64,000 nt of DNA, taken from assembly GCF_024521635.1 (NCBI RefSeq), contig NW_026250413.1:620001-684000 (forward strand), read 5' to 3'. Numbering within the stretch: the stretch's first letter is position 1; each line of letters starts with the position of its first letter. Position numbers and translations under genes: made by a program. This DNA is from Tricharina praecox. Its lineage: Eukaryota. The notes beneath the pieces were generated by a model, which saw nothing but the letters and a program-made list of their open reading frames with translations, was not told the DNA's origin and searched no databases. Below, in pieces: positions 192-20,109 of this stretch.

Positions 192-2200
<2,009 letters not shown>

Positions 2201-2772
2201 TAATTGAGAGGGGGGTCGGTAAAATGTACTCTTAGTTGTCGTCTAGAATTTTTTCAAGCCTGTTTGCCAAAAATGTTCAGTGAATATAGGGTGCGGACGT
2301 TGTGACACTTGGGTGACTTGTTGAATGGAGTACATAAGAGAAGTGAATAGTTTGGCAGGGCAGGGCAGGGCAGGTACATATAACTCAATTCCAGCCCACG
2401 GTTGATACTGGTGACTGACCTGTGGGGTAGACAGACAGAGCCCAGCTGCTATGTACCCGTTGGTGTAGACCTCCCTCCTCTATCTTATCGATCAAAAACG
2501 CCCGGCCGGTTGCCGGCTTTCTTCCAAGGCTGTGCAGTCTTGTTATCCCACCTCAGCCACTAACATCCAATACTGACGTAACCGTTCCCACATGATACCG
2601 GTACATTATGTAGGTAGGTACCTCGCCACCAAGGAAACAACATCCAATCCAAATATTTTGGATACCAAGTATTTGCGTTCGTTCATACTTAATAAAACCC
2701 CCGTTTCCTTCTCCATATCCAAACGACCTCGAACATCACCACAAACACACCACAATAGAAGCGCAAAACAAC

Positions 2773-3723
2773 ATGTCATTCCGCGACACAAACACAGCAG
2801 ACCCCTTCTCCGCGCCCCCGCCGCCGGGCCCGCCCCCGCCCTCGCTGCCGGAGGGATGGCTCGCCAAGTGGGACGATAATTATCGGCAGTACTACTACGT
2901 CAATCTGTATACCAAGAAGAGCCAGTGGGAAATTCCTACGGTTGCTGCGATGGGGGCGGGTGGCAATGGTATGTACACAGCAGCAGTAGATGGTGGCAGG
3001 TGGCAGGTGGCAGGTAGCTGATGGCTGATGTTTCCAGGCGATCCGCCACCATATGGTGCACGGCCATCATCGGCGGGCTACATCGACGGCAGATCAAAGT
3101 CCTCGCAAAGCCAGGGCTACAACGATCGCCATGCCAGCCAGGGCCAGGGCTACACCACTTCAGACACCAAGCCCGCGCAGCAGAAATACGAATCCCTTCT
3201 TTCACCACCATCCAGCAGCCACATACCCGCGCACTCCCCGGCACATTCACCTGCAACCTCTGACCACGCCGTCCCGCGCACCTCTGGTAGTGGTGGCCTA
3301 GGCGCGAAGATATCCAATTTCCTCAAGTCCCACTCGCCGCAGCCACGGCCGTATCCGCAACAGTATCCGCAGCAGCAGCAGGAGCAGGCGTACTACTACG
3401 GCGGCGGGGGTGGCTATCCGCCACAGCAGCAGCAGCAGCAGTACGGGTATCCGCCCATGATGATGGGCGGTTCCATGATGGGCAACGGGGGCATTATGGG
3501 CGGCAGAAGACGGCGCCCCGGCGGCGGTGGAGGACTGGGCATGGCGGGCGGCGCGGGACTAGGCCTGGGCGCCGGCATGCTCGGCGGGATGATGCTGGGC
3601 GGCGCGCTGGCGGATGATAGGCAGGACTCGTATCAGGATGGGTATCAGGACGGCATGGAGGGGGATGGGGATTATGGCGGTGGTGGGGATTTTGGGGGTG
3701 GGGATTTTGGTGGGGATTTTTAG
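2773..3723 (+). CDS. WW-domain protein with Q/G/Y-rich low-complexity C-terminus (Wwm1-like)
   Basis: WW domain LPEGWLAKWDDNYRQYYYVNLYTKKSQWEIP. Intron 2969-3037 (GTATGT...GCTGAT...CAG) joins the two ORFs. C-terminus GLGAGMLGGMMLG...GGGDFGGDF is typical of fungal Wwm1-like proteins. Confidence 0.85.
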
Positions 3724-4308
3724 GATATGTATGGGACTTGGGTGTGGGATACGGGTAATATGGGGGTTGCTTTGGGTTTGATTTTCGGATGGGTGGGTGG
3801 GTGGGTGGGGGGGGGGGGGGGTTGCACTTATGTACACGATGGGTTGTACTTGCTTTGGGGCGGATGTAAGATGAATTGAGAGCTGGACGCGAAAAGACAT
3901 CTATATGGACGCATGCTTCTCGTCTTTGGGGGTAGAATCAATGATATTCATTGTATTCTGCACACAAATCCATCACATCACAATCCTCCATTCACTCAAA
4001 CTCAGACATTGGACTACCTACTTTGGTACCCTTACACCAGAGATAATCGATAGAGTAATAAAACCCCCCAGGCTTCCATTCCCACTCCGCCCTACTCTTC
4101 ATACTGCCCGTAGCAAAAAGTAGTCAAAACTTCCATTAAGAAACGGTATCCCTAATCTATCATCCTTCTTTCCCCCCAGCATCGTCTCCAAAGCCACCAC
4201 ACGGGTGCAATCAATCAATCATCAATCACCTCCTCTGCAAGAAAAGAACCACAGAATCCGTCAGCTCAGCAAAAAAACACCTCCATTACCCTCCAGCTCC
4301 TCCTCCTA

Positions 4309-7300
4309 TTACCTACCGCTCCAGCCCTACAACAATGCCGCCCGAAAAATGAAGTAAAAAAAAAACAAAGAAAATAAAAAGTGAAAGAATGTCAACATAC
4401 AATCGATCCATCTAACGCATTCCTCTGCTGATTGAGCCAGCTAGTGGGTGCGTCGCTCCTCCGGAGCAGCACCACGCTGTTCAGCTGTAGTCGGCTGGCC
4501 TGGTCATGGTACGCCGTAGCCATAAGTAAATTTTCGCGTTCCAGGAGTTCGAGCTCTTCTTCCTTCTTTCTCTGCACGGTACGCAAGGAACGTCAATAAA
4601 CTCCCAATGATTACGCTGGACGGGTTGGATGCAGATGCTTTCAATATTGCAGAAGAAGGTGGTTTGGGTGCTTGAGGTGTGGATGATGATGTGGCAGTAG
4701 CAGCAGCAGTGGCAGAGGATATAATTTGTGTTTGTGCGTCTTGTTTTATGTTTGTCGAAAAGGACAAGGTGGTGGAGGGGGGGCGTGGAACCTTAAGCTC
4801 TAGATATCGCTCCTCCATGGCTTGCAGTTTTTCGTCCGAGTCGGCCGCTCGCGCTGCTTCGAGTTGCTCTGTGAGGTCTTTGATTGTGGCGTTTTGCTTT
4901 TTGATGAACTGGAGAACAACGAAACGAAAACGGAATCACGTCAGCCATCACCCATCTCCTGCTTGTTGTGGGGAAAGGGGGAAACGTACGGCTTTGGACT
5001 TGGTCATCTTCTCCCGTCGGTCCTCGAGCTTGTTCTGGAGTTCTCGCACGTGCTTCTCCAACGCTCCATCGGCGCCGCCGATGCTTCCTTCGAACGCGGC
5101 AATCGTCTCCTTGAGATCCGAAAGCGCCTGCTCCTTCTCGAACAGAAGGTCCTTTTGCTCGGTCATCTTCGTCGAGAGTGCATCTTTCTCGAGCAGCACA
5201 CGTTCGAGGAGCGACTCCTTTGTCCGTAAGTCCGACTCGAGGTCCTTGACCCTGCTCTGAAGTTCCGCGTGCACTGTTTGCAGCTCTGCGAGATCCGAGT
5301 TTGCTTCCGCCTTAAGCTTATCCAGCGCTTCGAGCTGGTCGGCACCAACCAAGCTCACTATTCACCTCGGATTAGCAGCATGAAACATAAACTACGGATA
5401 GACCAGCCTGGGGCCATACAGTCCGACTGTGCAGTGACAAGAGCTCGTTTGGTAGTAGCCAACTCTGCTTCCAACTCCGATACCTTGATCTTAATCTCCG
5501 ACAACTGGGATTGGCTGTCCACGTAGCTCTGGCGCAGCTTGAGCATGACCTCCGAGCTATAGATACAGTCAACAACCGAGAAGAACCATTTCGGGGGTGT
5601 GTATTCGTATATACCCTTCGTTCGCGGTACCAGAACGGATCATGGCCAGCTGCGACTCGGCTACCAGCTTGGCCATATTGGCCTCCAGGTAGTCGTGCTC
5701 GAGCTTGTCCCGTGCTCTTGTTGCGTCCTCGAGCATGTGTTGCAAGACGACATTGTCAGCACCGACACCGCCGCTGTCCTTAAGATGTCGGATTTCAGCC
5801 TCCAGGCTGGCAATCTTGAGCTTCCTGAGGTATCGTCAGCAAATAAGCATCATCCGGATGGATTTTGTCAACACGCACATATCCGCCTTAGTCCTTGTCG
5901 AGTACGCCAACTCTGAACCGAGATCACCACCATATTCCTCGGCGGCTTCCGACACCAGTCCACTCTCCAGCTCCCGGATCTTCTCCTCGAGATTTCGTAT
6001 CCGCTCCTGGTCTTTCGTCTTCTGGTACTCGGCGCCATCGGATCTGGATAGTAATATCTGCTTCTCCGACTCCAGCGAGTTCTTCGTCCTCGACATCTCG
6101 GCACAGTCATTCTCCAGCCGCGCGACCTGTTTCTTGTACTGCTCGATGGTCCGCTTCAGTCCGGACACCTGTTTTGCGCTCTCCTCGGCAGCACGGAGCT
6201 CCTTCGACATGCGAGCATGCTGCTCCTCCATGATCTTCATCTGTTGCTCCAGGTCGCCCATGCTCTCGAGCTTCCTGCGGTACTTCTCCGTGACGTTGAG
6301 GTGTTTGGTGAGCTGGTCGATCTTGTGATTCGCCTCGTCCAGGTCGTCTTTGTACTTCATACCATCCCTCGCCCTCGGTTCGAGATCCTCAATCTGCGGG
6401 CTTTAGCAGGCACTCTCGTTGTCGATGACGGACGGGTACAGACTGTTCGTTCTTGCTTGGCGATCTTATGATCCTTGGTAGAAATCTCCTCCTCTTTATC
6501 GAAGATCTTGTCCTCGAGCTTCTGGACCTCATCCTGCAGCTCGTTGACGCGGAACTGAAGCCGTTCACCCCGATCATCATACTCCTGGCTATCTCTGGGC
6601 CTCCGATGAGACAGTTCCTCGATACGGGCTTGGGACTCCTCCTGTACAGAGTTTTCAGTCAGCCCCCATTGTCGAGCTGATGGTGGGATTGAACTACTAC
6701 GTACGAGCTGGGACTCCAAGCTCGATAACCTCCGCCGAAGCATTTTGTTCTCGTTTTCGACGGTTTCTCGATCTCCTACAATTCGTGCTAGCTCCTCCTC
6801 CATGCGGAATTGATCAATATCCGTTGGCCTGGTCACCCGTTAGATATGCAAACACGGATAGCACAATCTGGGGGCTTTACGCATCGCCGCTCTTGCTGCT
6901 GTCTCCATCATCCGCTTGATCCAGTAAGATCATCTATACCCATAAGCCTAGTCCAATAGCATCCGCAACCGCAACTCGGACATACCTCGTTGAGGATATT
7001 CATCATCTCCGTCTGCGAGCTCGGCGACAGAGCCTGGATCATCGCGATAAAATCCTCCTTCCGGTCACTCAGGACTGCCGTGGCGACAATAATTTTCGCG
7101 AGCTATAATCCATTAGCCCACCTCTTGTCTCCACCCCCGACCACCACCCCCCTTCCCCTTTGATCAAGTCGTGCGTACCTTGATAGTCTCCTCCACATTC
7201 GAGTCCTTCGCGATGGCCGTGAGATTCGGTGCCGGCGAGGGTAGTCGATGCCCGAGGGTCTCCGTATAGTACTTCGACAGGTCCTTATGTAGTTTCCTCA

Positions 7301-7738
7301 CTGCACCCATAAACATCAGCTTCCCCTCTCTTTAACCCCCACTATCTCTCCGTTGGCCAGGAGAACCCACGCATCTGGAACTTCCATAGCCAGTTCTTGA
7401 CCGCCGCCCCCGTATCACTGGGGTCACCCGAGATCTTGAAATAGCTCGGGTCGATGTCCTCTGTAGATTCCGGCGCACAGTTAGCTCTACATCCTGCGCT
7501 CCGGACGAGGGGTGGTCGAGGGGTATGTGGACGGACGTAGGACTTTGGCGATCGTGCTGCCATCGGAGAGGTCGGTGAGGGTTTCGATCTTCGGGCTGAT
7601 GGGACAGGAGTTGAACTGCACGAGCCGAGCGGGGGGTAGGTTCGTGAGCACATGTATACTTCAATTTACGCTGGGGCGAAACGGATGGAAACGTACCCAA
7701 TCCACAAGAGCTGCCGCAACGGCTCGTTCCGAGCCCAT
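4309..7738 (-). CDS. HOOK-family microtubule/early-endosome dynein adaptor (HookA/Hok1-like), multi-exon
   Basis: Spliced N-terminus MGSERAVAAALVDW|FNSCP...LSDGSTIAKVL...PNLTAIAKDSNVEETIK resembles a Hook domain. Long coiled coil follows (KYKDDLDE..., EKYRRKLE), then C-terminal RENLLMATAYHDQASRLQ...PTSWLNQQR. The 3' end is uncertain: 4392 if unspliced, 4309 with a final intron. Confidence 0.85.
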
Positions 7739-8314
7739 GGCGAAGGTTACGCGTGGAAGCTCAGTCGCGATGGTCTGGTGATGGTGGTTGATCGGTACTT
7801 AAGTGGGTTGGTGGAAGGCGCGGGGGCGTGTGTTGTCGCGAAGGGAGGAGGACGCTCTCGAGTTCCCGAATCCCAGTGCAGGGTGGTCAGGGCTCTTGTT
7901 CTCCCATGCTCCACCACCACCACAAGCACCACCACCACCACTTGTCTCAAGCAACAGGACGCTAAGCGCTTGCGGCAGTGGGCCGTTCCTCGTTTCGCTC
8001 AGCTGGAGCATGCAACTTGGTGATGGTCGGATCCCCTCTGTTTACCGGAATGAACCGTTATATCCCCAGATTGTTGGCATTCACAGCTTCCCTTGAGTAC
8101 TATCGTACATACAACATCCATTTAAATGATCGTGCCGACGGAAACAAATTGATGATTTCCCCAGACTTGCGGTCAGACGCTTGATCTCTCTACAGCAGCA
8201 GGCAGGAGCCATGACAAAAAGCACTTTGCAGCTATCTATCAGGTTCATGCACCAAACCCCAAGACCAAACACCTGAAACAAAAGGGAAGAACGGCCTCCG
8301 ACGATAGGCAAAGC

Positions 8315-8701
8315 TTAAAACATAACATCGACAATACCCGCATCCACCAGCAATAAAACAAACAACAGCAGCATCGGAAGAAAAGCAGCTAAAAGCAGCG
8401 ATACGCCATTCGTATTTACGCCGCGTGCCCCTGCAGAAGTCGCTGCAGGCGAAGGAACTGACGTTGACGACGCAGCAGCAGAAGCCGAAAAAGAAGAAGA
8501 AAACGAAGAAGAGGAAGAAGTCGAGAACGAAGAGAACGAAGACGATTCCGAAGGAGAAGACATATCCGCCGTCTCCGTGGAGCTTCCTTGCACAGCAGTC
8601 GACGTTATCGTTGTTTGCGGGGTAGCAGCAGTACTGTCAACCACACTGGAAGTTACACCCTCCGTCGTTCCAGTGCTCGTGACAATACTGCTGGCCTCAT
8701 C
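8315..8701 (-). other. In-frame post-stop extension of the I9 gene: Ser/Thr-rich stalk plus putative GPI-anchor signal
   Basis: 128 sense codons directly after the TAG at 8704-8702: DEASSIVTSTGTTEG...SSSSFSSS...AATSAGARGVNTNGVSLLLAAFLPMLLLFVLLLVDAGIVDVMF*. It has no signal peptide of its own. Confidence 0.65.
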
Positions 8702-9123
8702 CTAGCTCTGAATTGTCACCTGTTCGCGATGCTATCAGCTTCCGTACGCTAGTAGCCGTAAGGTGAGTAGATGTAATGCGACGTACGACCTGATCCTCCT
8801 CGATCGAGGGTTTGTTCTCGGACAAACTCTGGGCCTTGACCCTGTAGGTCTCCATGGTCTCCTCGGGCGACTCGATGGCGAAGCCTTGGATCAGCGCTGC
8901 ACGGGAGGTTAGCTTAGCTAAGCCGGGAGAGCGAAGGCACTCTCGGAAAACACTCACAGTAGCGATGGAGGAGCTTGGCTCCGCCGGCTACCAACTCAGC
9001 AAGGGCATCGTCGACCACCTGACTGGAAGTATTGTTGGGAAAGGTGACGATATATTTCTTGTTGGCGGCGGCTACCATGACAGCAAAGCTGAGCAGGGCG
9101 GCGGCGACAGTAATGAGCTTCAT
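8702..9123 (-). CDS. Small secreted peptidase inhibitor I9 (subtilisin propeptide-like), 3 exons
   Basis: Signal peptide MKLITVAAALLSFAVMVAA, then KKYIVTF...GGAKLLHRY|SLIQGFAI...PSIEEDQV|VTIQS*. Introns 8897-8957 (GTGAGT..GCTAAC..CAG) and 8720-8786 (GTACGT..GCTGAT..CAG). The YIVTF / HRY / GF / IEEDQVVT pattern is the I9 signature. Confidence 0.85.
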
Positions 9124-9965
9124 GATTTCGATTTTCGTGGTGGTTGATACCGCTGGGAGGATTGTTTCTGAATGGGTTGAGGTGAAGTACGAGCAATAGC
9201 AATGGTGTGAGTTGTAGTCGTTGCGTGGGGAGTTGGTGGCGAGAAGGAGGGAGGGAGGTGGGGAGTGTTCCATGATATCAGGGCGCGGAAACAGTGATGC
9301 GCAAGCTCCTAGCACGTGATCTTAAGCCTAGCCATTCAAGTGTCGAGGTTCCCTTCTGAACCTACGGGGCGAAACTCTAGGATGCTCCGTCGCATTTCTC
9401 TTCTCCAGTAGATAGACCAGAATGTACTTGGTAACTTAGCAGGCACCAGCAGAACCACATTCCTCTCTGAAACTCCTGAATCCGGCGAACAGCTGTGCAT
9501 CATGTCGTGCATCTCATTTTCACATCCTGGTTTCGGCCACTTCCACAGACATTGCGTGAGTGATAACCAATGATTGCTCCTTACCCACAGTGCACACCCT
9601 GCCTGCGATTCTACAATACATGTGAGCATCTATTCTAACGCGCGTTCAAAACTCTCTTCTATCGTGTTGTCATAGAATTATCTACAGCCATATGATAGCA
9701 CATAGAGCAATAAACTTGGATCAGCGAGCCCGGAACTTAAATGTTAGCTCACGCCAAGGCCCCTGTGTTCTAGGATGATGCGGCAATGAAATGTCAACGC
9801 CAACTGGAACCTGTCCTCATCAACAGTGGGCTTGAGCTACACAAACAAACAAGGCAATAATAATCGTGAATTTACCGCACACACGACACGACATCTACGA
9901 CAGGTTCACGACCAGTTCGCGACACTACTCCACAGCTAAACTGAGCTAAACACCCATCCACAGCC

Positions 9966-10768
9966 ATGGTTAAATCCACACAGATCGCGCGTCTCGACGG
10001 TATCCACACCTTAGCCCTGGCTTCGAGCTCCCAACTGACTTGAACTTCCACCAGGCGTACCCCTCGCCGCCTCCGTAGACGACGACCAAGCCGAAGCCGA
10101 ACTCTCCGAAATCAAGGGGCAAGTGAAGTACATCTTCCGACAGCTCAACAACGACAGCGAGCCACAGGCCTCAATCGAGAGCGGACCCTTCACGATACAG
10201 TCTTTCCCCCCTCCACTCCCCCCCCCCGACACAGACTAACCCGTCACAGCTACATAATACAATCCCACATCTGCTACGTATGCATCTGCGAGCGCAGCTA
10301 CCCGCGCAAGCTCGCGTTCACCTACCTCTCGGACATCGCGACGGAATTCCAAAACTCGTACGGGCAGGAAGCGATGTCGCCCAACCTGCGACCGTACGCG
10401 TTCGTGCAGTTCGACACGTTCATGCAGCGAACCAAACGGACCTATCAGGATACGCGGGCGACGGCGAATCTGGACCGGCTGAATGACGATCTCAAGGATG
10501 TGACGAGGGTCATGACGAAGAACATCGAGGACCTGCTGTACCGAGGGGATTCGCTGGAGAGGATGGGCGATATGAGCTCAAGGCTGAGGGATGAGAGTAA
10601 GAAGTATAAGAGAGCGGCGGTGAGGATAAATTGGGAGCATATGTTGAAGCAGGTATGTTGTGTTCGTGTGGACAGTGGGAGGGGATGGTGACTGACAATG
10701 AATAGTATGGTCCTATAGGTGGCTTTGCGTTCATCATGCTGGTGTTCATCTGGTGGAGGTTCTTTTAA
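9966..10768 (+). CDS. SEC22: ER-Golgi R-SNARE Sec22
   Basis: MVKSTQIARLDG|VPLAASVDD longin domain, YPRKLAFTYLSDI, RPYAFVQFDTF, SNARE motif DVTRVMTKNIEDLLYRGDSLE, and C-terminal TM YGPIGGFAFIMLVFIWWRFF*. Three GT-AG introns. Confidence 0.96.
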
Positions 10769-11634
10769 CCATACGGTGTAGAGGTGTGATTTGGTACCTG
10801 CGGCTGGCGTTTTGTCTTGTCTTGCACTTCTCTGGGCTTTTCGTTCTCTAGCCAACCCGATATCGAGGCTAGACACCGATCAATACATTGTTCTATCAAC
10901 CCCATTAACAGTTTCCGTCTTTTGGGATCTTTTGCGGAGAGAATAAGCGGGTCTTTCTGTTCGACTGCTACTTTTGCGTTGCGCTACCATGTCTTTAATA
11001 GTGTATAGTATATCTTATGTAGTATTCTTGAGAATTTTCCGGATGCAGTGTATTCGGAACACCATTTATCTTGGCGGAACAACAGGAACAGAGTGCAACG
11101 GAGTGGCGCAAGAAGCCACCCAGCAGCGAACAAAGGAAACAATCGGGGCATAGCTACAGGAGCGAAATGTAGACATAAGGTGAGGAGTTTTTCTTAAATG
11201 TGGCAGAAGGCTCGTACGGCCAGGGGAAGGTAAGGTCACGTTACCCGATTGGATTTGCACCCGTGATTGAATCTTTTGCAGAAGCCACCAATCCCAGCAT
11301 TTGCTTAACGTGACCTTACCAACTCGCAGCCGAACGAGTAGTGAAGAGGATGAGAGGGTGTGTATGCTCAGCTGCTGTCGCTGGTGCTTTTGCATTGCAC
11401 TGTCACCAGAGATACCATTAGGGAGATCTTGGTTGCTCCTGGCAAAGAACCTCAACTGAGATCCTCACCTCCCTTTGCAAAATCCCTCCATTGGAATTTC
11501 GACCGGATTGGTTTGGATTGTTTGCGGGTGTATAAGTACCAGGTATCGGACTTTTGCCTCGGCCTCCTTGACATATCTACGGACTTGGTTACCACCGTAC
11601 AACAGCTTAAAAATCAAAATTTCTTACTCACGAC

Positions 11635-12729
11635 TTATATCTCATCCTCCTCATCATCGAAATCATCAATCTCCCTATCCGGCGTAAATAGAATTGCGCC
11701 ACCACCCCCAATGCCACCCTCCCTCTGTGCATCAAAATACGGCAATACAACCTCATCCCTTGCCTTCCTCTGACTTTCCGTCAGCCCAAGCTCGAACGTA
11801 CTCATCGGCTCCTCCTCCTCCCCGGCGCCGCCCCGCTGCTTCACAGCCTCACTCTCCTTCCACCGCGGATGATCCTCCAGCAGCATGACCTTCTCCTCCA
11901 CCCCACCAGGGAGCACACTCCTTTTCATCCCGGCCGCCTCCCCCTCCCCGGGCAGGAAAAACCATTCCCCAACGCCCCGTCCACTCTTGCGTCGGTACTC
12001 CAGCTCCAGCACCACGCCTTCGGCAGGATTACTTCCCAGGCCCACGAGCACGCCGTCGACGCCCTCATCGAGCCCATAACCCGGCGGGGCAAGACTTCTA
12101 TCGCGCGCAGCTTTGGCGGCCAACATATGCGTGATCGAATGCACGGTGATGATCGTAGTCGCGAAATACGACAGCAGTGTTAGCGGCTGCGGGGCGGAGT
12201 CGGGATATGCATTTGCGCTGCCCTCGGGCGGGAGGCAGAGGGGCACGTCGGTATGGTACATAGCGACAAGGGTCGTTGTCGGCGACAGCAGCGAGGACAG
12301 GAATGGTGCTAGTGAGGAGGGCGCCGAGGAACACAGCGGGTTGAGGGAGTCGAGGATTAGAAGCGTTTTGCTGCTGCCGTTGGCTGAGCAGGCGGCGAAG
12401 ATCTCTTTTTGTAGGACCGGGATCGGTTTACGCCGTGCGCTGATGAGAGTGGTGATCCCCTGGGGAGGGCTGAATGTCGAAAAGGAAACGAAGACGGTTT
12501 TGCATTTTGCTGTCTGTTTCTGTTAGCTGCCATCACATATCCGGAAAGAAGTGAGGGCGGAAGGTACAATCGCTCGCTCAATATACTCGCGCACGAGAGG
12601 CCTGGATGACTGTGACAGCGAGTCAAGGAGGAGTGTGAACGGGGACGCTGTATCGCGGAGGCTGAGGAGTCGTGACACGAGGAGGAGGTTGTGGGTTCGG
12701 CGATGATCGACGGACTCTGCTGGCGACAT
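11635..12729 (-). CDS. ELP5: Elongator complex subunit 5 (Iki1/Elp5 family)
   Basis: HRRTHNLLLVSRLLSLRD..SPFTLLLDSL, YHTDVP, LEYRRKSGRGV, STFELGLTESQRKARDEVVLPYFDAQ and an acidic end DDFDDEEDEI*. One intron near 12510-12570. Confidence 0.88.
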
Positions 12730-13034
12730 CTTCAATGGTTGGACGAAGCTTGTGGTGATGGTGTGTCAAGTTGTAGTGGATGGTGGGGCGCCGTGAGGCT
12801 CTGTGAGACTTTGGTCCCTGAGATTTCATTGTGCAGAACTCTGCGGCGCTTCACATGGAGAGGCTTCAAGATGTTGCTCTATTACTTGCATTGGAATCTA
12901 TCAAAAACTTCCGAGCAAACACAATCGAGAGAAGAAAACGAGAGTACAAATACAATGATCCGAAAACAATATGCCCATATCGACCCACCCTATCACATCA
13001 TATCATTCGTACCTATGCCCTACATTACCATTGA

Positions 13035-14415
13035 TCAAACCCACTGTCGAGGGTTCTTGAGCACATCCAGCATACGCTGTTCCCTGGAGCCAGGTTCGGG
13101 GGAGTGCATGTACTGCCAGCTAGCGGTCAACGGCAAGCTCATGAGGATAGACTCAACCCTAGCGTTGGGAGTGTTCAGGCCAAATGCGGTACCGCGGTCG
13201 TGGATGAGGTTGAACTCAACGTATCGGCCACGACGGAGCTGCTGCCATTGCTTTTCTTCGGGGGTGAAGGGCATGTCCTGTGATATGAAGTTAATCGGTT
13301 TATATCAGGCAAAGGTGGGGCGGCGGGAAAGGCAGGTACCTTGCGTTTCTCAATGATTGGGAGATAGCCGGGCAGGAACGAGTCCAAGCAGTCAGTGGAG
13401 AACGCCAACAGCTTTTCCGGCTCCCTATCCTCAAGATCATCGAAGAAGATTCCTCCGATTCCGCGGGTCTCGTGACGGTGCTTGACGTAGAAGTAGTCGT
13501 CGCACCACTTCTTGAACCTGGAGTAAAACGCGGGGTCGTGGCGATCGCAAGCTTCCTTGAGGGATTTATGGAAATGGATTGCATCCTCCTCGAAGAGATA
13601 CGAAGGAGTGAGATCGGTCCCTCCGCCGAACCACCAGGCCTTAGTTGTGCCATCATCGTTCATGGTCTCAAAGTAGCGGTAGTTCAGGTGAACCGTTGGA
13701 GCCATAGGATTGCGCGGGTGTAGCACCATACTCAATCCCGCGGCGAAGAAGTCAAGCGAGTCGACAGTAAGATCCAAGCTTTTATGGTGCGCACGCATAT
13801 TCTTCACCGCCGCCGGAGGGAGTTTGCCGTATACAATGGAGATGTTTACGCCAGCCTTCTCGAAAACGTTTCCGTCCTGTAGCACGCAAGAGATTCCTCC
13901 GCCGCCGCCAGCATCAGGCCGGTCCCATTGATCTATCAGGAACTTCTTGCCGTCGACCTTCTCGAGGGCTTCGACGATTTCCTTCTGGCGCTCGCGGATC
14001 ATGGCTTCCATTCGGAGGCGGATGGGAGAGTTTTCGGTGACGCCAGATTCGCGCTTGAGGTTTGAGTCGGCCTGGCTCGTGCGGATGTTGCTTGATGGAG
14101 TTTCGCAGCGTAGAGGCTCCGGCTTCTGGTGGACGTCAGTCGATGAACATGTCTACCCAGGTGACGGTTGCATACCATGGTCATAGCCAGACCTCCGGCG
14201 ACAAACCCAGCGACGATTCCGGTGACTGTAAGGAACGTCATGTGGCGTGATTGGAAGGATGTGCTGTTGAGGCCGCCAGCTTTTATCGACGAAGTAAAGA
14301 AGGAATAACTCCGTCTCTGTGTCGGCTGAGCGACATTCCCACTGAGCTTCGACAAGCTGCGGGCAACTGTCGCACTCGGACTCCCGCCGCGGCGACAGAG
14401 AACACGGAAAGACAT
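13035..14415 (-). CDS. HEM13: Coproporphyrinogen III oxidase (aerobic) with N-terminal presequence/TM
   Basis: Motifs [61 protein letters not shown] and [20 protein letters not shown]. Two introns. Confidence 0.97.
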
Positions 14416-15537
14416 CTTGCTGGGGTAATGGAAAGGAACCTAGGTTAATTGACACGGTATGAAGAGAAGAAAGGACAGAGACCCACGACGCCTTATATCA
14501 CGGCATCGGTGGTTGGATTGACTGATAGATGGACCGATGTTCGTCGGATGGTATGGGCTGACTGCGCTAGTTAACGATGGCCGTGGCGGTTGTAGTGCCC
14601 AATGAGTGTAGCGCTTTAGGAAACCCTAACCTGCCGAGGTATGGCGAGTGGACTGAGATCAAGCGGGTGATATCCTATGTCTTAATTGATTAAGGAGCGT
14701 GCCTTTCATTCTGTTGTCGCGTCATTCTGGCTCGAATCAATGCAGATTGACTACTCCGATTGGGGTCGGACTGTCATCAGCCGCTCCTGGGGTTATAACC
14801 AATTTTCATAATATAGGTAGGTGTTTTCTGCAGTTCATCACTCGTGGTAAATGGCCGCTGGTTGCTGGTGTGCGAAGTAAGTCTGTTTCTCCTTGGAACT
14901 GGCTTTCTTCTTACTCCTTCATTTTCTTTGGTTTGCCTCACCACACTGACTGTTATCTAACTAGATGTCAGTATTGGGCTCTCTTCTTCAATAGGTAGGA
15001 GGATATGGTATGGAAAAAAAGAACTTGTAATTGTGAAGGAGCGGAGAATGCATGTATGCAAGTGAGTACACTACATATCTAATTTATGGGTGGTTCTGTT
15101 CGGAGGCTTCTACAGTGTACACATCCCCACATCCCCACATCCCCATTCACTCCTACATGATAAGCTGTTTGCTCCACCCAGAGCCACAATGTGGCGGTGA
15201 AGTGGTTTGTGCAGGTGCAGTTCGCATGCATGTAGCGTCAATGGTGTTTGCAAGGAGTCTTGGAGCTGGGGTTATGTATGTGGGTTCGTGGCCCACGATG
15301 AGTCCAGGAATCATAGTACTTCCGGTCACCCTCAATCACTGACGGGAGTCACGTGCTTTCTTTTATGCCCAGTTGCACCTGCACAGTTCCGCATTCCATC
15401 CGTCAAACACGCGTTGCACCAACTCTATTCCGTTTCCACTCTTCAATTCCACACCTTTTCACTCCCCAACCACGTGCCGCTGCATCGCAATCACATTCCT
15501 TCAATCGCTGCAGACAGACACTCGAATAAAAAGTGAG

Positions 15538-18148
15538 ATGGCAACTGATCGGGACTGGGACCGAGAACCTCACCACCGCAGCGACGACCCTCGTCGGCAG
15601 CAACCTCAACTACGTAGAGCGCAGAGTGGAATGGAGCCACCAACATTCCACGGATCAGACCCCTCTGATGTAGCTCGGCGCAACTCCGATTCCCGGGGAT
15701 CGTTTGTGTCGAACAAACATCCACAGTACTCTAGCGGTGACGGCAGTCGCCGGGGGCTAAGCGTCGACACTTCGCGACGCTCTCTGGGAGGTTCAAATGA
15801 CGGGAGGAGGAGCGTGGAGGCGTCGCCTCGGGATGTCACGATGACCGATGTTGGGGGAGGAGGAGGGGGGGGCGGAGGGGGAGCAGGCGGGGGAGCAGGG
15901 TTTCCCCGCCAGATTGAGCGATACCGTTCCGGCAGCAACAGCAACAGACGGGAGTCGGTCGATAGTGTGAATTGGACGAATGCTTCTCCGGCCGCACGAA
16001 CGCCTCCTACCTCACGTACACCTTCGGATGCCGTTGCGATTCGCGATCCTTCCCCTGCCACCTCGACGTATTGCAACAGTCCCCGGAAGATAGTCGCTGT
16101 CGCTGCAGCTGGCGAGAAAAAGAAGAGCTTCAGGCTAGTCATCCGGTTTTCCCTTCGCCCCGGCTGCTTAGATTAGCGGAAGTGCTGACTGGTATCTGTT
16201 CGGTGTTGTGTAGTGAGGTCGTGGCTCGCGTTTCTGATGTCTATTCAAGGTACCAGGCGGCGCAACGAAAATTGGAACTGGCGGGGATTGAACGGAATAA
16301 CCGTAAAGAGCATTTCGATACCTTCGCGTCCATACGCGAGCGATACCAAGGCGCATACGACAAGGCGGAGGAGGAATGTCGGAAATACAAAGAGGAGTGG
16401 AGCTTTGTGAGCACTTGGGCTGACAGCTATTTCAAGTCTCCACAACCCGAGAAAGACGGGGAAGACACGACCTCCCGAAAGATTCAGAAAGATCTTGGTT
16501 CGCTCTCAATAGACAAATATATTGAAAAGGTCGTCCGAGAGAAGCTTGCGCTTGCCAATTTACCAGGAATCGCAGAGCTGCAAACCCAGGTGCAAACATT
16601 GCAGTCAAATGACCGGCAGAGGACCGCTGAGCTGGCAGAATTTAAGAAATCGCTGGCGAAAGTTGACACCTCCTGCAAGTCTATGGAAAGCAGACAGACA
16701 TTCCTCAACGGTCAGGTCGAGGAAATGCGCAAATCGATTGAGCCCTTGAAAAAGGACGTCACCACCGCACAACAACTGGCCGTCGTGGCTGCGAACTCGA
16801 TGGACAAGCTAGATAAACTGATGGCGAGAGTCGATCAGGTATTGCTGACTGTAAATTTTCGACGGTGCATTGCTGACTATCAATACAGTTCGAGGATGAT
16901 CTGAAGAAAGTAGCCTCGGCGCTCGCAGAAGTCAGAACAGAATTTGCTGCGCACAACTCGCAACAGGAAGCTCTCCGGCAACGATTAGACACTATAACAA
17001 TACCTGTTCCAGCGTCCACGGATACGGGCATTCCACTGAACGAATTGCGGAAGGAAATTGATGATGTCATCGACCCTATCAAGAAGTATGTGGACGAGAG
17101 TCTGGACGGGATGGGTGATGTTGCCGACAACTGTGCTCGAGACGTTCACAAAGCCAATGCCGATATTGCCAAGCTATTGGCCGAGCTCGAGGGATTAACG
17201 TCGAAAATGACGGCGGAAGTCTCGAAACTCCGCACCGAGTTTACCTCTAGTCTGACGAAGGTCGCCGAGGATGTGCAGTCACTTGGGGGGATGTCCGGTC
17301 GGGAGATTGGGTTGTTCAGGGACCTGTTGTTGCGAGAAGGGAGGCGGATCGAAGGGCTTGAGGTGGCTGTCCGGCATTGTGACGATAGACTATCCCTTTG
17401 GTCCACGAATGACTATTACGAGAAGGTGGCCAACCTTCTTATAGCACGAAGTCCTAGTTGGTTCAATACCGCCCAACAGGTCCAATACCTCACCCAACAG
17501 GACGAGCTCCAACGGACTCAGCTTCAAAAGCTTGCCGGCCAAATTCAAGCTGTCCATTCTCAGCTACAAAACCACCTCCAGTCACCCGGGGCCCCCAGCG
17601 GAACGTTCACGCCAGGGACAGCTAGGAACCCATTCGCCGTCAATGGCGCGATCGCCAACGGTGCTAGCGGCAACATGGAGAGCAGGAACTGTGCCAATGA
17701 CCCCTTTCTTACCGAACTCAAACAACTCAAACAAAACTTCGAGGACCTGAAGGAGAAGTTTCGGAAGCTGGAGGAAAGCAGCGATATGTTCTCGCAGGAG
17801 AATCTAAAGGAAACGCTGCAGGATATGAAACACGAAGTCAACAAGGTTGTGAGGGAGAATGCTAATAAGATGTCACAAGTATCCGATTGGTCGGAGGATG
17901 TTAAACAAAACCTGCGATGTCTCTGGGAGGAGCTCTTCCGCATGGGAGTTCCTCTCGACCCGGAGATGCGCGCATCTTTTGGCCCGGCAAACGCTGTCGA
18001 CCTGAATGAGCTCACCGAAAACGGGTACGATCACATGACCGAAGACGGCGATATTGAACAAGTAGAGATGGAAGAAGAAGAAGAAGAGGAAGAGGAAGAG
18101 GACGAGGAAATGTCACAGAGAGAGGGTCTGGAGGAGGAAGTTGAATGA
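15538..18148 (+). CDS. Uncharacterised protein: disordered N-terminus, long coiled coil, acidic C-terminus (3 exons)
   Basis: Three long consecutive ORFs joinable by introns ending ...GCTGAC..TAG at 16213 and GTATTG..GCTGAC..CAG at about 16839-16888. Heptad-rich sequence and a poly-Glu tail. The exon 1 donor is ambiguous. Confidence 0.7.
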
Positions 18149-18259
18149 TTCTCCATGACGAACATACCTAAATACTCCAATATACCCTAGTTTTGGTACT
18201 AGGAATGCTTTTTGTTTTTACTTTCCTGTGGATTTTCTTTCCCGTGTGTTTCTTTTCTT

Positions 18260-18321
18260 GCATCTTTTTCCTGCATCTTTTTCCTGCATCTTTTTCCTGC
18301 ATCTTTTTCCTGCATCTTTTT
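18260..18321 (+). repeat. 13-bp tandem repeat (GCATCTTTTTCCT) x~4.7 in 3' UTR
   Basis: Directly visible perfect tandem copies. Confidence 0.9.
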
Positions 18322-18906
18322 CGAGCGAGTGGATATTCGAGTTGCATGCGAAGGGGTTTTTTTTTCATGATGGCGTTCGGGAGAAACAATGGATTGCTTT
18401 GTACTTCTTGTCTACATTTCTCATTTCCGGGCTATTGATAGATGTCGTTTGTTCAACGTAGTTGCTGGTTTTTGTCTTGTATTCCATGTCACAGGTACTT
18501 TGGGTGGTGATTCGTTTGGAAGGGCTAGCAGGTTGATTGTTTGCAGTTGCTGCTCTATTGATGGCTTTTCTGGATCATTTCTACATGTGTTTGGTTGGGC
18601 GTCTCTTGTGGTCGTCACATCGTGTTTGGTTGGGCGAGCGATTGATTTAATTCCAGTCAATCCACCGCTCCAGATAACTCCAATATAGGTACATAATAGT
18701 CAAACAGCAACGAGATCTCCGCGTCTAGTAGAATCGATTCCTGGCAATGGCAAGCAAACAGCGACCGGATCTCCATCAATAACAAGCCTCACACCATGAC
18801 GCTGCCGCCGTTGGGAAACTTGATGGAAAGCATGCCCCCTTCCTTTCAAAGTAGAGGGAATCAATCAAATGACTGTTGTGGTAGTCTCGTTGCCGTGTAT
18901 ACAGTC

Positions 18907-19574
18907 TCACAGTCCCTGCCTCAACCGCTCTGCCAACTGCTTCTTTCCAAACTCCCACGCATTCAAGAGCCCCTTTTCCGACAGGTCGATACTGCTGACC
19001 TGGATGTCCTGCTGCGGCGGCCGTGAAACCCGCTGCACAATTGCCCCCGGCTCTGTCTCCAGTATCACACCGTCGTCAACAATCTCCTCGATCGCCAGCG
19101 CAACGAGGTCGTAGTTCTCGATTATGGTTCGCTTGTCGGTAGAGTTCCTGATTACGGAGCAGAGAGGTCCAAGTCAATTCCATGCTTCACCCGAAGTAGA
19201 ATGGGCATGTGAATGAATGTTACTCACTTCAACAGGATCTGTAGCGTGTCCCTGAGTGCGAGGACAACTTGGTACAGCATCATCTCGTTCTCTTCCATTC
19301 CTCCGACGACATACAGCATCACGTCGCTCTCGGCCTTGAACAGGACGACGTGGCCATCATAGAGGATGATATCTGCCGTTGACTTCGCCGTCTTCTCCAT
19401 GAGTCCCTTCTCAAACGCCTTTTGCTCTTTCAGCGTGGGGTAAGGGTTCTCAGTCGTTGCCCCGGTAGTGCTGGCCGTGTGCGGAGATCGGTAATATTTG
19501 GCGAGGATGCGGGTGCCGTCGGTTGAGAGGATTAGAAGCGCGTTGACGCTGAAGAGAGAGAGGTTTGGTGCCAT
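18907..19574 (-). CDS. RET3: Coatomer (COPI) zeta subunit
   Basis: MAPNLSLFSVNALLILSTDGTRILAKYY...YPTLKEQKAFEKGLMEKT, then exon 2 NSTDKRTIIENYDLVALAIEEIVDDGVILET...LAERLRQGL*. Confidence 0.96.
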
Positions 19575-20109
19575 AGCTGTGGTGGCACGGTGATGATGTA
19601 GTATTGCTTGCTGCTGTGTTGTGGGGATCACTCAAACTGGCGACGTTGTCTGAAGCTTCAAGAGTGAACGGTCGCTGCTATTAACTAACAGCCTGTACTA
19701 GTAACTGAACGGGGACGCTAGGTTAGTAACTATGACTTGTCGCGTTCTCCCAACAACCCCCGTCGCGTCCTTCCTTCACCAACCCCACCACCCCACCACC
19801 GTCTACCTCAATCAACGCTCGTGTTCTTATTCAACTACCCCGCCATCCACCATCTCACCGTCTCATCCAAGCCTCGTCAATTGCGGCCTAATTCCAACTA
19901 CATCAACCTACTTCCACTTACTTCGCCGACCCCAAAAATTCCACGGTTGATAGCTGTAAAGCATCCCCATCTTCTCCGTCTTGTCACCTCAAATTATTTG
20001 AGCTGTGTTTTTACGCAACGGAGTTTGAGTTGCATCTGAATGTGCCCTTCGTTATTTAACTGCTGACGAGAACCCTCTAGCTCCTCATCTTTAGAGGACA
20101 ACCGACAAT

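Follow-up and report, generated by a model that had tools for sequence, protein, structure and literature searches.

A gene of the cup fungus Tricharina praecox that encodes a putative secreted subtilase inhibitor ends at a TAG codon, and a strong predicted stem-loop begins exactly 8 nt behind this stop, within 128 further codons that remain open in the same frame. The stem-loop at this position is the new observation here. We consider the locus to be a real and well-formed candidate, as yet unproven, for programmed readthrough by which a secreted inhibitor would gain a surface anchor. In the open-access literature searched, we found neither a fungal GPI isoform produced by readthrough or editing nor an I9-GPI protein, and the functional readthrough described so far for fungi in the cited papers, in the sections of them drawn on here, concerns short peroxisomal signals at UGA-CU (PMC4207609). 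If the candidate were confirmed, recoding would be extended to the secretory pathway by a virus-like arrangement of UAG, 8-nt spacer, and long stem in a nuclear gene of a fungus, and ribosomal recoding would determine whether a fungal protein is anchored at the cell surface. Gene models that skip a stop, possibly including that of the Geopyxis carbonaria homolog P0014 described below, would then hide more such cases. The order of secreted ORF, stop, hairpin, and Ser/Thr-anchor frame would offer a search pattern for anchored isoforms missed by annotation, and the region would make a compact and easily tested reporter cassette. All positions refer to the window, i.e., the whole stretch of 64,000 nucleotides that was analyzed (contig NW_026250413.1, positions 620,001 to 684,000).

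Gene structure, inhibitor domain, and transcripts

The gene lies on the minus strand and has three exons, which after splicing encode 97 residues ending in VTIQS-TAG. Its coding part consists of the following features:

8958..9123, minus strand: coding part of exon 1, with the ATG at 9123; first half of the I9-like domain
approximately residues 1–20, in exon 1: signal-peptide-like N-terminus, recognized by inspection
8897..8957, minus strand: intron 1, 61 nt, GT..AG; joint found in the RNA assemblies X1, X2, and X3
8787..8896, minus strand: exon 2, ending at EEDQV
8720..8786, minus strand: intron 2, 67 nt, phase 0; joint found in X1 and X2
8705..8719, minus strand: VTIQS, the C-terminal strand by alignment with POIA1
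8702..8704, minus strand: TAG stop in the context UAG-G; genomic, and unedited in the covering RNA contigs

The spliced product is 100% identical to an annotated hypothetical protein of T. praecox (P0001). When exon 1 was used as the query, two of the 331 candidates matched, i.e., P0001 (100%) and P0002 (80%). Intron 2 contains a branch-like A at 8735, 15 nt before the acceptor in use.

The Pfam I9 model (PF05922) scored 14.1 bits, which is under its gathering cut-off of 21.2, and we therefore call the domain I9-like and do not assign it to PF05922. With phmmer, the domain matched the POIA1 structure 1itp (E = 0.0033). An AlphaFold2 model of the domain, built from a 78-sequence alignment (mean pLDDT, 88), has a predicted propeptide-like alpha/beta fold. 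The two best Foldseek matches of this model were 1itp and 1v5i (E = 1.1e-3), which represent POIA1 alone and bound to subtilisin, and the next matches were subtilisin propeptides. From these sequence and fold similarities, we infer that the domain is a POIA1-like putative subtilase inhibitor, that it would act by inhibition, and that its VTIQS strand would enter the protease active site. A propeptide-like binding mode via the C-terminal strand is described in the available part of 10.64898/2026.05.05.722857. The protein resembles POIA1 of Pleurotus ostreatus and other stand-alone I9 inhibitors in sequence, in fold, and in the C-terminal strand that follows an EED motif; unlike them, it has a signal-peptide-like N-terminus, a Pfam I9 score below the cut-off, and a candidate anchor hidden behind its stop.

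The neighboring genes within 1001–19631 are all of the housekeeping type, i.e., those for an ATP synthase alpha/beta-family subunit, a WW-domain protein, a HOOK-like protein, a longin SNARE, Elongator Iki1, coproporphyrinogen oxidase, and an adaptor small chain. The HOOK-like gene flanks the inhibitor gene on one side and the longin SNARE gene on the other. A scan of 24 long ORFs from the first 20 kb of the window revealed no protease gene.

For the RNA comparison, four of the seven listed runs (X1–X4) were used, of which X1 and X2 span the stop and X3 and X4 do not; their RNA nature was presumed by the tool, and the contigs are spliced. X1 and X2 come from different studies and each gave one spliced contig (1,065 and 1,037 nt; word depth, 957 and 715) that begins near 9235, ends near 8065, and skips 61 and 67 nt at its two joints. 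The acceptor used in both is the proximal one at 8720, and both contain the TAG and the entire 128-codon tail on the same molecule. The original prediction that the spliced gene ends at the TAG at 8704–8702, with 128 open codons behind it, is thus confirmed in the sequence and in the spliced contigs, and the transcript, which was expected to reach 8315, runs past the tail to about 8065. An assembly error or a strain-private nonsense allele, either of which would have made the stop spurious, was rejected, because two studies yielded spliced contigs that contain the TAG and the proteins of the sister species stop at this residue too. Neither a T>C difference at 8703 nor an 85-nt joint (8786–8702) is listed in either of the two covering contigs, which are assemblies of unrecorded growth stage from which rare variants are dropped.

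Predicted stem-loop behind the stop codon

Three structural features were located around and behind the stop in the spliced mRNA:

8694..8701, minus strand: 8-nt spacer between the stop and the stem-loop; six of the eight nucleotides are purines
8626..8693, minus strand: stem-loop B, a predicted fold and candidate readthrough stimulator
8677..8788, minus strand: competing stem A, which encloses the stop in the fold of the spliced mRNA

The lower stem of stem B comprises 14 bp (8693–8680 with 8639–8626; 13 Watson–Crick pairs and one GU pair), followed by a 3 × 3 internal loop and a 9-bp upper stem (8676–8668 with 8651–8643). Its predicted energy, −39.0 kcal/mol (z = −5.06), was equaled by none of 200 shuffles. 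For a 75-nt fold, the z values ranged from −3.7 to −5.3 against dinucleotide, synonymous, and codon-order shuffles, and the protein-preserving nulls over these 75 nt gave −3.7 and −4.0. When the region was synonymously re-coded under two schemes, such a helix appeared in 0 of 1,500 sequences in each. At least 13 Watson–Crick pairs starting 3–15 nt downstream occurred at 1 of 1,104 TAG sites, and the next best site had 10. Stem B has the strongest z along the mRNA, and its energy is the lowest among 1,622 stretches of matched GC content that follow stop triplets in the window (mean ± standard deviation, −17.5 ± 5.1). Equal or greater stability was found behind five of 3,781 other stop triplets, every one of them GC-richer. 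The two arms pair in the in-frame antisense register, and no further copy of stem B was found in the window. A search of Rfam gave five matches, all under the gathering level, in which miRNA models scored weakly.

Stem A is a perfect 10-bp helix formed by the last 2 nt of exon 2 plus 8719–8712 with 8686–8677; it has 10 bp only once intron 2 is removed and 8 bp before that. A 10-bp enclosing stem was found at none of the 1,107 TAG sites compared, and the z of stem A is −3.9 in a fold with 30-nt flanks. Stems A and B have a common arm at about 8686–8680 and are mutually exclusive, and stem B displaces stem A when pairs spanning at least 70 nt are allowed. On the basis of these predicted folds, the two stems could constitute a conformational switch.

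According to the sections of PMC3159437 drawn on here, published readthrough stimulators in alphaviruses, tobraviruses, and a Drosophila cellular gene have spacers of 7–9 nt and stems of 11–14 bp, and in MuLV, UAG-G is combined with a pseudoknot 8 nt downstream. Predicted stem B falls within this description of a stable stem of about 11–14 bp placed 7–9 nt after the stop, and an open, coding-like frame continues 3′ on the same mRNA. In Drosophila readthrough, structures are commoner at TAA and TAG sites, as stated in part of PMC4207609. A plain leaky context was also considered and rejected; the stop lies in UAG-G, which is neither the UGA-CU nor the UAG-CAR motif.

The open tail and its relatives

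The region behind the stop was divided as follows:

8318..8701, minus strand: open tail, 128 codons in frame behind the TAG, closed by a TAA at 8315–8317
8423..8701, minus strand: Ser/Thr-rich stalk, tail codons 1–93, including a simple-repeat Ser run
8426..8437, minus strand: SAGA, a small-residue stretch resembling an omega site, tail residues 89–92, by a rule-based reading
8345..8404, minus strand: hydrophobic segment of 20 residues, tail residues 100–119 (Kyte–Doolittle value, 2.9 over 19 residues)
8315..8344, minus strand: nine residues with two Asp, then the TAA; a departure from the textbook GPI signal
8065..8314, minus strand: 3′ UTR up to where the transcript contigs end; no periodicity

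The openness of the tail is by itself not remarkable: 133 of 20,000 dinucleotide shuffles of the 3′ region also lacked a stop over 128 codons, and a second frame of this region runs for 134 codons without one. The ordered layout of stalk, SAGA, polar spacer, and hydrophobic segment turned up once in 20,000 shuffles and once among the 585 stop-to-stop segments in the window that comprise at least 60 codons, with thresholds that were chosen after the tail had been seen. The codon-position periodicity of tail codons 1–47 (chi2 = 40) was reached by none of 420 scanning windows outside long ORFs and by 20 of 706 within long ORFs. It is still present when the hairpin and the Ser repeat are left out (p = 5e-6), and it is lost past the stop of the tail (chi2 = 4.5). 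The GC3 of the tail is 0.45, compared with 0.76 in the exons of the I9-like domain and 0.67 in the 16 training ORFs for codon use, including one read from the wrong strand, and its codon score is −0.26 bits per codon, compared with +0.16 in the I9 exons. The third positions are T/G-rich and resemble the 3′ UTR, a pattern that fits a rarely translated tail and a decaying tail alike.

A very Ser/Thr-rich stalk within a classic GPI architecture had been proposed for the tail. The stalk is borne out, with 53% Ser + Thr over tail codons 1–93, and the small omega-site residues, the polar spacer, and the hydrophobic segment of a rule-based GPI layout are also present. However, the hydrophobic stretch is not at the very C-terminus, and nine residues follow it. 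The likely omega site lies 36–39 residues from the C-terminus, and the usual propeptide range of GPI proteins is shorter than this. The predicted tail, which contains one Arg and no Lys, could equally well provide a single-pass membrane anchor or a GPI anchor. The language-model neighbors of the tail in the ESM Atlas included KRE1-, FIT-, and CFEM-type proteins, with scores of <0.9 and low recognition, and provide a lead only. No homolog of the tail was found among 86 candidates when its C-terminal 53 residues were searched.

Four spliced proteins of a sister cluster, which are 80–82% identical to the inhibitor, all end in VTIQS, and their contigs are up to 901–1,070 nt in length, close to the transcript length here. 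The sister proteins end at the same VTIQS, and the stop is therefore older than 18–20% protein divergence. We simulated neutral decay of the tail at assumed distances of 0.1, 0.2, and 0.3 substitutions per site, and it stayed free of stops in 54%, 30%, and 17% of the runs, respectively; in a second variant, with indels at 5% of substitutions, it stayed free of both stops and frameshifts in 11%, 1.6%, and 0.2%.

Profile searches gave 104 and 49 hits. The C-terminal motif is present in 122 of 155 homologs, and seven extend more than 20 residues beyond it. Among the 122 homologs with the motif, a Ser/Thr-rich and hydrophobic tail was found only in P0014 (G. carbonaria, KAI5787173.1), which is one gene model only. 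In P0014, an I9-like domain without the terminal inhibitory strand is followed by a stalk with 45% Ser/Thr and a GPI-type end, which are joined right after EDDQV, i.e., at the position of intron 2 in T. praecox. The two tails do not align (E = 21), and the ESM Atlas contained no usable match for P0014. This model may reflect a genuine fusion or an alternative splice form, or its prediction may have skipped a hidden stop. In the tree, P0014 was placed with Sphaerosporella at 88/81, and a Pezizales-like group was recovered at only 59/71; its orthology is likely, not firm.

The models from Sphaerosporella, Wilcoxina, Pyronema, and Kalaharituber have the short form. In Sphaerosporella brunnea, the last exon of P0110 was modeled in another frame. 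When decoded, it fits the short form at 10 of 10 positions and implies a TGA stop, and the 20 codons past this TGA cannot be stops and have a Thr/Ile-rich pattern. The 30 nt after the TAG of T. praecox match P0110 in frame better than all 98 downstream pieces and all 5,000 random pieces of the window, although the match is weak under the strictest null, in which 67 of 5,000 random tail codon sets were as good. P0110 and P0007, which are located on the same 238,958-base contig of S. brunnea, are identical over 92 residues and are apparently duplicated copies whose last exons were annotated in different frames.

In a metagenome scan, 305 pattern matches were reduced to four distant loci (23–34% identity). 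None of the four has a tail, and the three genomic ones have no intron 2. The distant I9-like genes L002, L003, and L004 lack an intron after EEDQV, and their other intron is placed differently. The genome and viral collections searched yielded no relative's locus. Two homologs, P0044 and P0088, have two I9-like domains in tandem. Judging from these sequences, intron 2 may be restricted to Pezizales, and the short form is the norm; the tail looks like an addition within Pezizales.

Proposed readthrough and alternative explanations

We regard the prospects as evenly balanced that programmed readthrough gives rise to a minor anchored isoform. The main product of the single spliced mRNA would be the secreted, POIA1-like subtilase inhibitor of 97 aa. 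Stalling at stem B would cause a minority of ribosomes to insert an amino acid at the UAG and translate 128 more codons, producing a 226-aa form with the signal peptide, the intact inhibitor domain, the Ser/Thr stalk, and a GPI or single-pass membrane anchor, which would be displayed on the hyphal surface. The predicted folds suggest that the hairpin could form and stimulate readthrough, and the tail would then be translated and anchor the protein. The 226-aa form would keep the inhibitory strand; at the surface, it could be bound by a target subtilase, which could then release it from the stalk by cleavage.

Readthrough is favored because a stem-loop of the readthrough type sits 8 nt behind the TAG, and it explains the hairpin, the 8-nt spacing, and the single unedited transcript all at once. 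Readthrough predicts a single splice form, the absence of T>C at 8703, and a tail on the same contig, as seen in the covering contigs, and it tolerates the TGA inferred in S. brunnea. Three routes had originally been put forward, i.e., editing of the UAG, readthrough, and use of the TAG as an alternative 3′ splice site. The stem-loop points to the second, and the first and third were unseen in the two covering contigs, from which rare forms are dropped. The broader idea that one gene could make a free and a tethered inhibitor gains real support from the coding-like tail on the same mRNA, the stop shared with the sister species, and the fused model in G. carbonaria.

The arrangement is similar to the structure-stimulated readthrough of the MuLV gag UAG, alphaviruses, tobraviruses, and a Drosophila gene (PMC3159437, in the sections used) in its stop, 8-nt spacer, 14-bp stem, and open frame downstream, and it shares the UAG-G context with MuLV gag. 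Unlike those systems, it involves a fungal nuclear gene for a secreted protein and a predicted stem-loop, not a pseudoknot. The cryptic peroxisomal signals of fungi, which are exposed by readthrough or alternative splicing, are likewise C-terminal targeting signals hidden behind a stop and result in dual localization; as described in part of PMC4207609, these are mostly UGA-CU cases with a short extension, whereas the present locus combines UAG-G with a long hairpin and with a stalk and anchor of 128 residues in the secretory pathway. More speculatively, and with doubt outweighing confidence, a conserved, hairpin-programmed UAG/UGA readthrough in Pyronemataceae might split one secreted protease inhibitor into free and surface-tethered pools, with the tethered form acting as a surface trap that is clipped off by its target enzyme. 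The trap would be clippable because readthrough keeps the inhibitory strand, with the scissile bond just before the stalk.

It is unlikely that the tail is an untranslated remnant of an anchored ancestral form whose fusion persists in G. carbonaria. The hairpin would in that case be a 3′ UTR element with another job (stability, localization, or a small-RNA precursor) or would have arisen incidentally from the in-frame complementarity of Ser/Thr/Ala codons. The UTR-like third positions, the imperfect GPI end, the lack of a tail homolog among the 86 candidates, the in-frame antisense pairing, and the weak miRNA-model scores, far below gathering, are all consistent with a relic. However, codon positions 1 and 2 are strongly biased while the third is UTR-like, as if a protein were under selection, and the stop has outlasted 18–20% protein divergence. 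A relic would also have to account for a helix that synonymous re-coding does not reproduce, and the 8-nt spacing would have to be a coincidence.

Sexual-stage A-to-I editing that converts UAG to UGG in apothecia, with the anchored form made during fruiting only, has close precedents, and we consider it quite unlikely here. Pyronema confluens, which also belongs to Pezizomycetes, has 2,772 edited sites in sexual tissue, of which 149 are stop-loss sites (PMC5381528, in part). The U at −1, G at +1, and A at +3 of the TAG form the preferred context given in the sections used of PMC11156358, and a fold with 30-nt flanks, as applied to DBF2 (PMC13123824, in part), leaves the A unpaired within stem A. 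Yet both covering contigs are without T>C at 8703 (stage unrecorded, rare forms dropped), stem B wins over stem A once pairs spanning at least 70 nt are allowed, and editing leaves stem B unexplained. Moreover, the A of the TGA inferred in S. brunnea has no U at −1. The locus thus shares with the sexual-stage stop-loss editing of FgDBF2 and P. confluens (PMC13123824 and PMC5381528, in the parts used) a UAG in the preferred context, a local hairpin, and a related lineage, and differs from it in that no edit is seen and the stop is followed, not enclosed, by the dominant predicted structure. Among the "inhibitor" entries in the first 6,482 rows of the first sheet of Table S3 of PMC5381528, where an ortholog may not carry that word, there was no secreted stand-alone I9 protein, a result that carries no weight either way.

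Use of the TAG as a minor downstream acceptor of intron 2, which would give an 85-nt intron and a 220-aa anchored form without VTIQS, ranks after editing and is improbable. The 67-nt joint is the only one seen, and all four spliced sister proteins are short. The TAG lies 33 nt from the branch A, compared with 16.5 ± 7 in Trichoderma (PMC4324775, in part), and two CAGs are nearer than the TAG, although a weak branch-like word is located 14 nt before it. The stalk of P0014 begins at the intron 2 position with the strand missing, as this splice form would, but that junction may be the work of a predictor skipping an in-frame stop. A parallel is provided by CRF1 of A. fumigatus (Crf1, Crf2, Asp f9), one gene with non-GPI and minor GPI forms, in which the GPI form is about 1000-fold rarer in vitro; according to the sections used of PMC6443627, the two forms arise from alternative transcripts, whereas a single transcript form is seen here.

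Chance, i.e., a T/G-rich 3′ UTR with a simple repeat that is accidentally open in frame, would suit the shuffle counts for openness, the second frame open for 134 codons, and the repetitive Ser run, and is very improbable in view of the periodicity outside the repeat, the ordered layout (1 of 585 segments; 1 of 20,000 shuffles), the hairpin, and P0014.

A separate tail gene starting at the ATG at 8563 was also considered and is unlikely; its product would be without a signal peptide, and the A of this ATG reads G in X2 and X4. This difference at 8563 (T>C; A>G in the mRNA, with U at −1), which changes Met to Val in the tail and is absent from X1, probably represents an allele, although its sequence context is of the editing type.
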